A DNA stretch of 64,000 nt from Octopus sinensis. Taxonomy: Eukaryota. The stretch covers positions 49,414,001 through 49,478,000 of the forward strand of contig NC_043001.1 in assembly GCF_006345805.1 (NCBI RefSeq). The letters are read 5' to 3'. The notes beneath the pieces were generated by a model. The model made no database searches. It was not told the DNA's origin and was given only the letters and a program-made list of their open reading frames with translations. This document shows, one piece after another, positions 9,115 to 54,696 of this stretch. Made by a program: the position numbers and the translations under genes. The first letter of the stretch is position 1. Every line of letters starts with the position of its first letter.

Positions 9115-12005
9115 ACACACACACACACACACACATATATATATATATATATAATATATATATATATATATATAATCAAAATAAGCAACAAGAATGACTC
9201 CGGTAGTTTGGTACGATCGTTTCGTACTACATCGTACCAAATTACGGGAGTCATTCCTGTTGCTTATTTTGATTATAATCACCCCACGGATTTTTATGGA
9301 TAACACCATACAAAATTCTGGTGCATCTAAATTAAGTACCATATTCATTTGAATCTAAATTTTTGCTGAACTTATATATATATATATATATATAAATTAC
9401 AAAGAGAGATACAATTGACAATCCAATAATTTATTATATTACAATATATCATAAAATACTATGAATATAATATAACATAATATAACATAAACAATTATTA
9501 AAACATCAAAAAGCCAACATTTTGTTTCGACTTATATTACATTTTGTTATTTATACATAATCCCCTTATATATAAGTCTCACCAGAGCCAGAGTTTAAAG
9601 ATAGACGAAATTTCACGTGAAAGGACGGCTGGACTGTAAAAAATTAATTCAAATGCCTATAGGGTATTTAAGTTATAGTGTTTACACCCATGAGTTTATT
9701 TTCATATTTATTACGGAATTCTCCTTACGATAAATTAAGTATACAAAGAAAATTTTTTTATCAGGTTTCTATTCATATTTATTACAGAATTATCCCTCCG
9801 ATAAACAATAACTACAGAACATTCCTATTATTTACTTTTAACAATATATTTTTATATCAAAAACTATAAAATAAATAGAAGAGTTATATATTAAAGATAT
9901 AATTATCATTTATATTTTTTAACGTTTTATACGGTTCTAGATAAAGCAAGACCCTGATAATTATATACGCATATATATTATTGTTGTATGTTATAATAGC
10001 GAAAGATTCTCTTGGACATAAACGAGTTCGGATCAATATCATTTGAGATAAATAGAAATACATTTTGATAGTTGTAAATTACACTTACTTTATATTTTTG
10101 TTCGTTAAAATTTTTTGTTGTTTTTAGTTATTAATATGTAATTGAATAGCTAATGTTCACGCTCATAAAACATAGGCATTTGAATTAATTTGTTTATATA
10201 TAAGAAAATGTATATAAGTCGAAACAAATTGTTGGCCTTTTGATGTTTTAATAATTGTTTATGTTATCTTATATTATGCTATATTTTAGTCATACTATAT
10301 TATAATACTAGCAGAGATACCCGGCCTTGCTCGGGATTAAAATGGCATAATTTTTTTTATTGTTTTACTTCTTTCAGTAATGTGACTGTGACCATGCTGG
10401 AGCACCACCTTTGGTCGAAAAAATCGACCACAGGATTTATTCTTTGTAAATCTAGTACTTATTTTACCAGTGTCTTTTGCCGAAGCGCTAAGTTATGGGA
10501 ATGTAAACACAGCAACATCGGTTGTCAAGCAATGGTCGGGGTACAAATACAAACAAACACACACACACACACACACATATATATATATATATATATATAT
10601 ATAATATATATATATATATAATCAAAATAAGCAACAAGAATGACTCCGGTAGTTTGGTACGATCGTTTCGTACTACATCGTACCAAATTACGGGAGTCAT
10701 TCCTGTTGCTTATTTTGATTATAATCACCCCACGGATTTTTATGGATAACACCATACAAAATTCTGGTGCATCTAAATTAAGTACCATATTCATTTGAAT
10801 CTAAATTTTTGCTGAACTTATATATATATATATATATATAAATTACAAAGAGAGATACAATGACAATCCAATAATTTATTATATTACAATATATCATAAA
10901 ATACTATGAATATAATATAACATAATATAACATAAACAATTATTAAAACATCAAAAAGCCAACATTTTGTTTCGACTTATATTACATTTTGTTATTTATA
11001 CATAATCCCCTATATATAAGTCTCACCAGAGCCAGAGTTTAAAGATAGACGAAATTTCACGTGAAAGGACGGCTGGACTGTAAAAAATTAATTCAAATGC
11101 CTATAGGGTATTTAAGTTATAGTGTTTACACCCATGAGTTTATTTTCATATTTATTACGGAATTCTCCTTACGATAAATTAAGTATACAAAGAAAATTTT
11201 TTTATCAGGTTTCTATTCATATTTATTACAGAATTATCCCTCCGATAAACAATAACTACAGAACATTCCTATTATTTACTTTTAACAATATATTTTTATA
11301 TCAAAAACTATAAAATAAATAGAAGAGTTATATATTAAAGATATAATTATCATTTATATTTTTTAACGTTTTATACGGTTCTAGATAAAGCAAGACCCTG
11401 ATAATTATATACGCATATATATTATTGTTGTATGTTATAATAGCGAAAGATTCTCTTGGACATAAACGAGTTCGGATCAATATCATTTGAGATAAATAGA
11501 AATACATTTTGATAGTTGTAAATTACACTTACTTTATATTTTTGTTCGTTAAAATTTTTTGTTGTTTTTAGTTATTAATATGTAATTGAATAGCTAATGT
11601 TCACGCTCATAAAACATAGGCATTTGAATTAATTTGTTTATATATAAGAAAATGTATATAAGTCGAAACAAATTGTTGGCCTTTTGATGTTTTAATAATT
11701 GTTTATGTTATCTTATATTATGCTATATTTTAGTCATACTATATTATAATACTAGCAGAGATACCCGGCCTTGCTCGGGATTAAAATGGCATAATTTTTT
11801 TTATTGTTTTACTTCTTTCAGTAATGTGACTGTGACCATGCTGGAGCACCACCTTTGGTCGAAAAAATCGACCACAGGATTTATTCTTTGTAAATCTAGT
11901 ACTTATTTTACCAGTGTCTTTTGCCGAAGCGCTAAGTTATGGGAATGTAAACACAGCAACATCGGTTGTCAAGCAATGGTCGGGGTACAAATACAAACAA
12001 ACACA
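9115..12005. repeat. Near-identical tandem duplication, unit about 1444-1446 bp
   Basis: Identical ORFs at 9678/11122 and matching ORF starts at 10382/11826 (offset 1444). Breakpoints lie in (CA)n/(TA)n tracts. Confidence 0.9.
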
Positions 12006-12315
12006 CACACACACACACACGCACACACACATATATATATAAATACATACATACATATGCATACGGAAACTGTAAGAGATAAGAGATCGCTCCCGGCTCG
12101 CATTAGGCAAGAAGTTGAAAATTTTTTTGGCCCATGACACTGCATGGACCCTTAGTAAGGCATGTGTACAATTTAAATGAAATCTGTTGGGTAGTTCTCG
12201 AGTTTTAGTGATGCACACATACAGACAGACACACATTCTCAGTTTTATATATATAGATAAATAAATTAATGGATTGTCAATTGTATCTCTCTATTTAATT
12301 TTATCTTTGTAATTT
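10840..12315. mobile_element. AT-rich long-TIR MITE or foldback element, interrupted by a Helitron
   Basis: The left arm aattacaaagagagatacaa..gacaatcc..aaacaattattaaaacatcaaaa..tgtttcgacttata..aattcaaatgcctat is inverted at about 11615-11750 and 12260-12315. Confidence 0.7.
11752..12257 (-). mobile_element. Non-autonomous Helitron containing a SINE fragment
   Basis: Minus strand reads A|TCTATATATATAAAA...(ctgt)-type repeat...hairpin cccgagcaaggccggg + CTAG|T. This gives canonical 5'-TC and 3'-CTAG ends, an A|T insertion site and no TSD. A truncated duplicate starts at 10308. Confidence 0.8.
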
Positions 12316-52269: not shown

Positions 52270-52307
52270 CTGTCCGATGAACGGCAACAGGAAACTCAGA
52301 GTAACAG
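52270..52307 (+). ncRNA. Candidate minimal type I hammerhead with a CCGAUGA core variant
   Basis: ctgt-ccgatga-acggcaacag-gaaa-ctcagag-ta-acag, inside a 140-bp insert (52201-52340) between (TA)n tracts. Stem II is weak. Confidence 0.45.
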
Positions 52308-54696
52308 GTCTTGTTGAATTTTCTGCTGCTTTAAATAAAGTATATATATATATATATATACATACTTATGTATACACAGGTATATACGTATATGATATGT
52401 ATGTAAGTCTGTGTATTTATATATGTATATCCTAGCATGTATGTATATGTGTTTGTCTACAGTTCACTGTACTCTGCGTTTGGTCTGCCCACATAATTCT
52501 CAAAGGACCCTGCTGTAACTATACGTGTAATTCTCTTCTTCCACTTTCTCTTATATACACATTGTGTGTGTGTGTGAGAGAGAGAGAGAGAGTTTGTTTG
52601 GTTCTGTGGGACAGAGAGAAAGGGTTAAAGTGATAGATTTCAGGAGAATGGAGTTGCAGTAACAGGAAAATATCCTTGGTGTAAGAGCTGTAGGAATTTG
52701 AAGAAAAGATTCCCAAGATGTTAGGAATGTGTGACGGATAAAGACTAGGATGTCTGAGAGGTAAAGGGGCTTACGTGGTAATCCCACGGGTAGAGGAACC
52801 TGATATGTTAATGTATTGGTGAGTCGCTGTGTAAGCATATTGATATGTTTGTCAAGAAATGTGTGTAGTTGGATAGCTGTGAATAAGTTCGTATGTAGGG
52901 ACGTGTGTGCATGTGTGTGCATGTGTGTGTGTGTGTGTGTGTGTGTTGTGTGTGTGTGTGTGTGTGTGTGTGTAGTTGTGTGTTTAGCCGGGGGACGATG
53001 GAGTCGGAGTGCAATCACCAGTGGTCAAATATGTCTGAAGTATTCGAGATATGTGAAAATAGACTCGTGGCACGGGTAGGTGTAGCTGAATGACGACGAC
53101 TATGATGATGTTGATGCAAGGCGTAGTGGTGGTGGTGGTGGTGTATACGTGTGCTTGTGTGTGTGTGTGCCATTGTGAGCATCTATTTGTGTAGAAAGGT
53201 TTCGGTATTGGTGGGTAGGGTCCGAGAAACGTAAGGGGTCTGTAGTGCAGCTAAACACATTGACTCTTGTGAATTTTTTGACTGAAATACGATGGTCTTC
53301 CCTTCTTTCTTTCTTTTTTTCCTTTTTTTCTTTCTTTCTTTCCTTTTCTTTCTTTCTTTCTTTCTTTCTCTCTTGTGGTCAGGCGTTCGCACTAGAGAGA
53401 GATGGGGATTTAGGACTGTTGGTTTATACACACACACACACGCACACGCACACACACATATGCACATGTACACATGTATGAGCACATACACACATACATG
53501 CAATATACACATACACATACATATATACATACCCATATACGTAAGCACACATATGAGAACATACACGCAAATACACATGCACTTACGCGCACGCATACAC
53601 GAGCTCATGTACGTATATACGCATACATGTATGTACATTAAGATACGCACACGTATGCACAGCTTTAAACATATGCGCATACACATACATACACATGCAA
53701 ACACATACACATACACACACACATACACATACACATATATGCTCAGTGACATATATATATATATATATATATATATATATATATATAGAGAGAGAGAGAG
53801 AGAGAGAGAGAGAGAGAGGGAGAGAGAGAGATAGATAGATAGATAGATAGATAGATAGATAGATAGATATGCATATGCATACACATATACCACAAGGAGA
53901 GGGGAGAAGTTAGGGACGACGCTTTGGGGAGGCGAGGTGAGTCGGGGGCAACGGAATTAGGACTAACAGTCCAGAATACCTGAAACGTTGCAGGAGTTTG
54001 GAAGGGCGATACGTCAACTAGTTTTCTGGATGTTATAGTGTCTGAACTACTACTACTACTACTACTACTACTACTACTACTACTACTACTACTACTACTA
54101 CTACTACTACTGCTACCGCCGCCGCCGCAGCCGCCACCACCACCACCACCACACCACCACCACCACCACCACCACCACTAGTACTATCACCACCACTACC
54201 ACCACTACTACTACCACCACCACCACTACCACCAAGAACCACTCCGGCCATCTCGGACGGTAATCACAGAACTGACCACTTCGAATAACGATAACATTAA
54301 CCAATACTAACATTGAGCGTTGCAAACAACGGTAACAGCTGCAAGGATCATTCTGATCACCACGGACAGTAATCGCTCCAATACTGACCACCTCAAATAA
54401 CAGCAGTTGCCAAAATTTACTAGACCACTAAAATATAAAAAAAATAACTATAGCAAGAACACCATTCCCACCACAACCACCACCACCATCAACTATAACT
54501 CGAACAGCAACAACATCAACTACAGCAACAACAATAGCTACAACAGCAACAACAACTAAAACTAGAACACTACCAAGAACAACAATATCGACAGCACCAA
54601 CAACAATTATTACGTTTATTAAATCCGTTATAATGAAAGCCGTGGCTACTGTTTTAACATATTGGAGCATAACGTCTCTGTTGATGTTGTGTGTAG

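Follow-up and report, generated by a model that had tools for sequence, protein, structure and literature searches.

Probable head-to-head insertions of 5'-truncated, Hydra-like Penelope elements at (TA)n tracts in Octopus sinensis

Elements in the window

We analysed a 64,000-nt stretch of Octopus sinensis contig NC_043001.1 (the window, to whose positions all coordinates refer), in which short elements, several of them folding back on themselves and some carrying hammerhead ribozyme sequence, lie at (TA)n microsatellites. They comprise six distinct insertions among five families of Penelope-like element (PLE), designated A to E, and each insertion consists of one or two arms that end in a pseudo-long terminal repeat (pLTR), with or without a further stretch, the tail.

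9155-9174: (TA)n target run, left of family A
9175-9233, minus strand: family A tail-less arm, 3' pLTR end, CUGAUGA half of the hammerhead cut off
within 9175-9233, minus strand: family A hammerhead remnant (stem II 3' strand, then GAAAC, palindromic stem III and GUA at 9212-9223)
9231-9372, plus strand: tailed arm of family A, overlapping the preceding arm by 3 bp at the joint; its 99-nt tail is 9274-9372
9373-9394: (TA)n target run
10621-10818, no strand assigned: duplicate of the family A insertion, carried by a local tandem duplication of 1.4 kb (9174-10556 / 10620-12000)
41736-41783: (TA)n target run
41783-41858, minus strand: tail-less arm of family B, older subfamily; hammerhead truncated, with the 5' core missing and stem II onward retained
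41860-41934, plus strand: family B tailed arm, a short pLTR-end piece plus tail
42249-42434, minus strand: family D tailed arm, tail ~42249-42385, ending 3' of the hammerhead
42429-42508, plus strand: family D tail-less arm, without retained hammerhead sequence
42509-42520: (TA)n target run
45142-45159: (TA)n target run
45164-45371, minus strand: family C tailed arm, tail ~45164-45262, ending 3' of the hammerhead
45372-45444, plus strand: family C tail-less arm
48215-48230: (TA)n target run
48232-48342, plus strand: family B, single-armed and tail-less, with a complete type I hammerhead (core 48249-48299)
52165-52200: (TA)n target run
52201-52267, minus strand: family E inverted arm, tail only, 67 nt
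52266-52340, plus strand: family E tail-less arm, complete minimal hammerhead core 52274-52303
52341-52360: (TA)n target run

A preliminary description of this DNA had placed hairpins at 9172-9276, 42390-42507 and 45263-45444, and their folding energies, expressed as z against 100 dinucleotide shuffles, are indeed those of strong hairpins (−17.4, −11.2 and −17.7, respectively). A fourth supposed hairpin, 41783-41872, folds back only weakly (z −3.4), through outer arms of ~14 bp plus the hammerhead's own stem II, and 52201-52340, described as an insert, forms no hairpin (z −0.4). Comparison of the masked window with itself returned inverted matches at 9174-9274, 10620-10720, 42404-42476 and 45266-45441. 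The placement of all elements in or beside (TA)n agreed with the sequence everywhere, whereas four of them proved longer than described, their one-sided tails (9274-9372, 41860-41934, 42249-~42385, 45164-~45262) having been omitted. The supposed duplicate at 10618 is a copy in sequence but not a separate insertion, as it belongs to the 1.4-kb duplication, whose two copies are 99.9% identical.

The loop of the 9172 hairpin had been read as half a hammerhead on the minus strand, and a motif scan found GAAACGATCGTA there at 9212-9223, with its duplicate at 10658-10669; in this copy the cut falls inside the 59-nt stem II region of family A. The motif reported in the 41783 element and the hammerhead reported near 48240 are likewise present, the former with stem III and cleavage triplet decayed and the latter (48249-48299) with a 6-bp stem I and the core variant CCGAAGA. 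The copies at 42390 and 45263 are truncated 3' of the hammerhead and retain none of it. It was thus correct that some elements carry hammerhead remnants, but the motif scan also revealed a complete minimal core, at 52274-52303, that had been overlooked; a CG>CA change costs its 2-bp stem II one pair.

Five families and their hammerheads

Searches of the 2.7-Gb genome were made for each element, and 40 candidates were scored in each search. The five dispersed families are unrelated in sequence and share one layout: a body with a fixed end, an optional tail (99, 68, 99, 141 and 70 nt in A to E, respectively) and then (TA)n, often with a second, inverted copy facing the opposite way. The stubs correspond to the 3' ends of longer elements, each consisting of an open reading frame (ORF), a 3' untranslated region (UTR), the hammerhead, the pLTR end and the tail; in tandem copies (loci L051, L170 and L188) this tail opens the 5' UTR of the following unit. 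Intact units were located through protein searches. The family E locus L170 reads, in order, inverted arm, pLTR, tail, a 727-codon frame, 3' UTR, pLTR, tail and (TA)n, with a period of 3353 bp, and family B loci L187 and L188 have an intact 717-codon frame and a period of 2578 bp. Partial tandems forming pLTRs, together with an inverted 5'-truncated copy, were found at L170, L188, L051 and L075. Family A is preceded by broken reverse transcriptase (RT) and endonuclease sequence in 6 of 16 fetched loci (L200, L203, L206, L207, L208 and L211), family C by endonuclease pieces in three (L161, L096 and L229), and family D by such pieces in at least four (L147, L215, L218 and L224). Inverted Penelope ends, which the preliminary description had offered as one of two alternatives, are therefore what the stubs are, since longer copies lead into RT/GIY-YIG endonuclease ORFs. 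Its other alternative, a retrozyme-like non-autonomous group, is not supported, as each family continues into its own endonuclease-coding sequence in longer copies; nor do the stubs form the single group proposed there, being truncated autonomous-type elements of five families.

Families B and E each encode a single intact ORF with RT and C-terminal GIY-YIG endonuclease, these domain names having been assigned from motifs; the motifs given below were read by eye in an alignment. The Hydra clade of PLEs is defined (PMC8557442) by RWK, DKT, loss of CCHH, a CxCX5C linker, C-terminal CxxC and CxH, canonical hammerheads and (TA)n targets. The family B protein (P0002) has every one of the published motifs: RWK, DKT, Y[RK]DD, the CxCX5C linker, CxxC and CxH are present and CCHH is absent. 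In the family E protein (P0001) RWK is retained, EKT stands for DKT and the second linker cysteine is missing, and a family A piece has NKT in the DKT position. The linker is present in B, A and D, and the fetched C sequence stops short of it. Close homologues carry PF26215 and PF28514; of 7994 candidates scored, 825 are related to P0002 at E ≤ 1e-20, with 41-51% identity among the 120 listed. A sequence search of the PDB gave nothing below E 0.17.

By these motifs the five families are predicted to be PLEs with Hydra-clade features. They have in common with that clade, as described in PMC8557442, the single RT and GIY-YIG ORF, RWK, DKT, the linker in B, A and D, the lack of CCHH, the (TA)n targets and a type I hammerhead on the sense strand, 50-190 nt from the 3' end, and they differ from it in 3' UTRs of ~0.7-1.3 kb (A, C, D, E and older B), in stem II loops of ~59 nt in A and 67-87 nt in C, in tails of 68-141 nt and in the degenerate linker of E. 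On comparison by eye with Hydra-2_Amil (File S2 of PMC8557442), stem I of the family E hammerhead is the same and stem III almost so. None of the five hammerheads is identical, again by eye, to that of Hydra-1_Obim, the octopus element in the supplement of that paper, and the families are thus distinct from it. They were not found in the part of the supplement that was compared; Repbase and Dfam lay outside the search, so they may already be catalogued. Membership of the Naiad group, first suspected from the (TA)n preference, was ruled out because the endonuclease is C-terminal and the hammerheads are canonical.

In all five families the hammerhead lies in the pLTR on the sense strand, and stems I and II are wholly different between families yet pair within each. 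A type I hammerhead, a predicted self-cleaving motif, is found in longer copies of every family. Counting as complete any 3' half accompanied by the 5' core and at least 3 bp of stem I, we found 21 of 59 in A, 30 of 43 in B, 3 of 13 in C, 19 of 48 in D and 38 of 50 in E; the remaining halves are truncated or decayed. At minimum free energy, 48236-48312 folds as a three-way junction (z −2.0), and the family E hammerhead alone gives no hammerhead fold, as expected of a minimal, dimer-type motif (PMC4209133). The 3' half common to B and E has 12,591 exact matches in the genome, as compared to 6 for the reversed control. Among the sequencing runs listed, none was recorded as RNA; contigs from three that were taken as a guess to be RNA, and from a fourth of unspecified kind, cover most of the family B unit, but they show neither ends, strand nor level, and no pile-up of beginnings or ends is listed for them. 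The minimal hammerheads of metazoan PLEs (PMC4209133) have the same type I core and short palindromic stem III and occur, as here, mostly singly or as opposite-strand pairs 100-700 bp apart, which were attributed to truncated PLEs. They differ from the present ones in that the CCGA(A/T)GA variant is frequent in B and E and that stem II loops are very long in A, C and D.

Several related sequences were encountered besides the five families. A sixth young family (loci L177-L186; protein P0003, L179:3201-5534) has an intact 778-codon ORF, its own hammerhead and no linker cysteines. A link between families C or D and its ORF (L164, L119) was considered and dropped, the pieces being adjacent or inverted parts of other elements. 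Pieces of different families abut with no TA run between them at L139 (a family A arm on a family B ORF piece) and at L119 and L164 (a family C or D end after a sixth-family end), which may reflect either nesting or template switching across families. Within the window, an arm at 24886-25031 (minus strand) adjoins (TA)n, has a hammerhead core at 24919-24946 and matches loci L068, L177, L179, L018 and L078 at 83-97%, some of these being head-to-head pairs. Directly after the family A insertion, 9394-10310 (copy ~10840-11755) contains an inverted pair, 9447-9555 / 10195-10307, of 86% identity, and a hammerhead-like motif with a 9-bp stem II and one core mismatch at 9516-9585 (minus strand); this is likely another Penelope-type family. 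A 41-bp tail-less stub of the older family B subfamily follows a TA run at 45548-45588. Immediately left of the 48232 arm lies an 84% direct repeat (47706-47798 / 48125-48213), with a loose core-like motif (47923-47991) between its copies and no match among the fetched loci.

Insertion geometry and the origin of the arms

Of 356 arm ends in loci retrieved by query, 317 lie at one of two fixed sites, the end of the pLTR or that of the tail. The flank enrichment that the preliminary description had put forward as a check was evident, as (TA)4 occurs within 28 nt of 250 of these 317 fixed-site ends as compared to a background of 6-8%, and some of the ends without it are tandem junctions. Exactly one tail was present in 69 of 73 head-to-head pairs in the raw count (two tails in 3, none in 1), and in 55 of 57 after removal of 15 loci from a query of the same layout and one double count. 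As an unbiased test, a second sample was taken by position: of the first 100 B/E 3'-half matches in positional order, 98 were fetched as 76 loci, the other 2 lying in the previously fetched locus L175. Here the corresponding count for (TA)n is 54 of 57, and one tailed and one tail-less arm were found in 20 of 20 pairs and in 21 of 21 additional insertions whose partner end could be recognised (41 of 41 in total); the other 36 arms either had no recognised partner (19) or ran past the fetched DNA (17). If the start site were chosen independently for each arm, at most 50% of pairs would be expected to be mixed.

Arms range from 11 bp to more than 1 kb, many copies are single-armed, and arms often end just 5' of the hammerhead. 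In family E, the stops of 79 arms upstream of GAAAC fell at 20-39 nt in 34 cases, at 0-19 nt in 14, at 40-149 nt in 17 and farther off in 14 (a few rows of this tally are misassigned, and the sample requires the 3' half), and the initiator-like CCATTCT lies at the far edge of the cluster. Inverted arms with TA flanks are also what miniature inverted-repeat transposable elements (MITEs) present, that is, DNA transposons bounded by terminal inverted repeats and TA target duplications, and in 5 of the 14 loci that the hairpin query retrieved the family A arms meet at an identical joint (the 3-bp overlap). That joint, however, spans different subfamilies and once has the tail on the other arm (L048), which points to repeated microhomology joins rather than one spreading unit. 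With arm length variable from copy to copy, a tail outside one arm, many single-armed copies, a conserved hammerhead core in all five families and all families leading into RT/endonuclease sequence, we give the MITE explanation, which the preliminary description had named as the refutation of its own, practically no credence.

The possibility of retrozymes, non-autonomous units that replicate through small circular RNAs cut by the hammerhead with Penelope RT acting in trans, draws on the type I hammerheads with palindromic stem III and on a report that animal non-LTR retrozymes, which share this hammerhead type and PLE ancestry with the present elements, derive from PLE pLTRs (bioRxiv 10.64898/2026.07.22.740005). 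By the definition in that report, a retrozyme has two or more consecutive direct units carrying hammerheads. Short direct hammerhead tandems were absent from the 76 positional loci of B and E, where apparently direct cases were inverted pairs caught by a near-palindromic pattern, plus one locally duplicated complete insertion (L283); for A, C and D, direct units were absent from the query-retrieved loci, which were the ones checked. Each family, in addition, has its own coding sequence, there is no fixed unit length, copies grade into full ORFs, and 4 of the 6 distinct window insertions lack a complete core. For B and E the retrozyme reading is thus largely refuted, and overall we consider it very improbable.

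A further question is whether both arms derive from one cDNA, started at the tail end, that folded back on itself, the second arm being cut or joined to the target at the TA-like boundary of pLTR and tail. Such snap-back would also yield exactly one tail; among the 20 positional pairs the arms reach equally far in 7 and the tailed arm is longer in 8, joints lie at short palindromes such as CTAG and TGCA, and self-priming has been proposed for such joints (PMC3846280). However, equal reach is also expected if both arms stop in the common zone 5' of the hammerhead. In 5 of 20 pairs, and at 9175 in the window, the tail-less arm exceeds the tailed one in length, and in 6 of 41 positional cases, as at 52201, the tailed arm consists of tail alone and has no sequence in common with the other arm. 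Without extra deletions, a single folded-back cDNA cannot be the source of tail-only arms or of longer tail-less arms, and we regard snap-back as an unlikely general explanation, although it may account for a subset, the equal-arm palindromes.

We are instead highly confident that the elements are 5'-truncated head-to-head insertions of five Hydra-like Penelope families, in which both nicked strands of the (TA)n target likely primed reverse transcription at two fixed sites on the RNA. The endonuclease would nick both strands of the self-complementary (TA)n, the cDNA from one strand would begin at the tail end and that from the other at the pLTR end, both would stop early, often just 5' of the hammerhead, and their ends would then be joined by a few bases of microhomology or filler. 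Because copies run through the predicted cut site, the RNA template is taken to be uncut at the hammerhead. A Penelope protein has been shown in vitro to cut and extend both strands of its target, starting at two RNA sites that bound the tail, and hammerhead cleavage is dispensable (PMC11167929). The element concerned, Poseidon PAc of Anolis, resembles ours in its tail between two fixed ends, its AT-rich targets and its copies through the hammerhead cut site; it belongs to another clade, and its tail lies inside the ORF rather than in the 5' UTR. Pen2a_Av has the same head-to-head arms, one-arm tail and palindromes or microhomology at the joint (PMC3846280, PMC8557442), with a tail of 30-40 bp and visible target-site duplications where ours has 68-141 nt and unreadable ones (PMC3846280). 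An extra G at the inner arm end, considered as cap-derived, was discarded: in family E the opposite arm explains it in 5 of 5 cases, and the family B cases were selected by the query.

Several observations weigh against this account or parts of it. For the clade, the assignment is by motif, CNFK replaces the second linker cysteine in family E, the 3.35-kb unit of E exceeds the '<3 kb' stated for Hydra, a Pfam scan gave 0 hits for all 3 proteins, and no intact ORF for A, C or D was seen among the fetched loci. Rfam matched no hammerhead in 47900-52500, nor any among 150 of 229 rows for the whole window, all of them microRNA (miRNA) look-alikes on simple repeats. For the mechanism, target-site duplications cannot be read in (TA)n, and the 7 pairs with arms equal within 5 nt have near-perfect palindromic joints that a fold-back also fits. 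Private variants common to both arms are enriched in A only (12.1 vs 1.9 per kb), with none in B or E, so a single RNA molecule as the source of both arms is not established. The in vitro start site showed no difference between strands (PMC11167929), and the strict pairing of one tailed with one tail-less arm is thus not accounted for by that study.

We tentatively extend the proposal to suggest that Hydra-clade enzymes always use both RNA start sites in an event, one per strand, mostly on the 5' pLTR-tail copy of a transcript beginning just upstream of the hammerhead; this is a real possibility, albeit one on which we would not rely. If true, the thousands of hammerhead hairpins of ~150-250 bp would not be random truncations but programmed run-off products that terminate at the RNA 5' end, and a full-length copy would require tandem RNA made by read-through.

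Other features and significance

The remainder of the window contains a second near-identical local tandem duplication (16578-18242 / 18337-19999, 99.3%). It and the duplication at 9174-12000 both have a repeat run at the joint, and they may be real or assembly artefacts. A 1.28-kb element, which we take to be a mariner, is present in two copies of 93% identity and opposite orientation (43809-45092 and 60417-61675), with a transposase-like frame at 44113-44853; the second copy seemingly interrupts Tc1-like frames at 60255-60707 and 61633-61995. Host-like coding stretches lie at 4211-4711 (plus strand), 36868-38190 (minus), 54432-55079 (minus) and 62877-63449 (plus), and presumably comprise an exon for a C2 domain, a frame of 440 codons containing two calponin-homology-like repeats of the EB1 type, and two exons that are cysteine-rich and chitin-binding-like.

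As a class, the elements are ordinary: inverted pLTRs with a one-sided tail (PMC3846280, PMC8557442), opposite-strand hammerhead pairs (PMC4209133) and octopus Hydra elements in (TA)n are all in print. The present analysis adds five families, tails of greater length, a one-tail rule backed by counts and a zone 5' of the hammerhead in which arms stop. In a literature search outside of which most subscription papers lay, no paper had twin priming or inversion in PLEs as its subject by title or abstract, and PMC8557442 was the only one found on octopus Penelope-like or Hydra-clade hammerheads.

On this account the hairpin is a by-product of insertion rather than a selected RNA structure, and the window copies are dead stubs whose regular arm ends likely record how the element is copied. 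For annotation this matters because such stubs resemble MITEs or miRNA hairpins and escape Pfam and Rfam, and there are more than 12,000 exact hammerhead halves for two families alone. Copies of family E, which lacks one linker cysteine, and of the sixth family, which lacks them all, nevertheless lie in (TA)n, and this is relevant to the published proposal of a role for the linker in directing (TA)n targeting. As regards mechanism the value is modest: with intact ORFs in two families and a target as simple as (TA)n, the one-tail rule seen in 41 of 41 cases would be testable in vitro.

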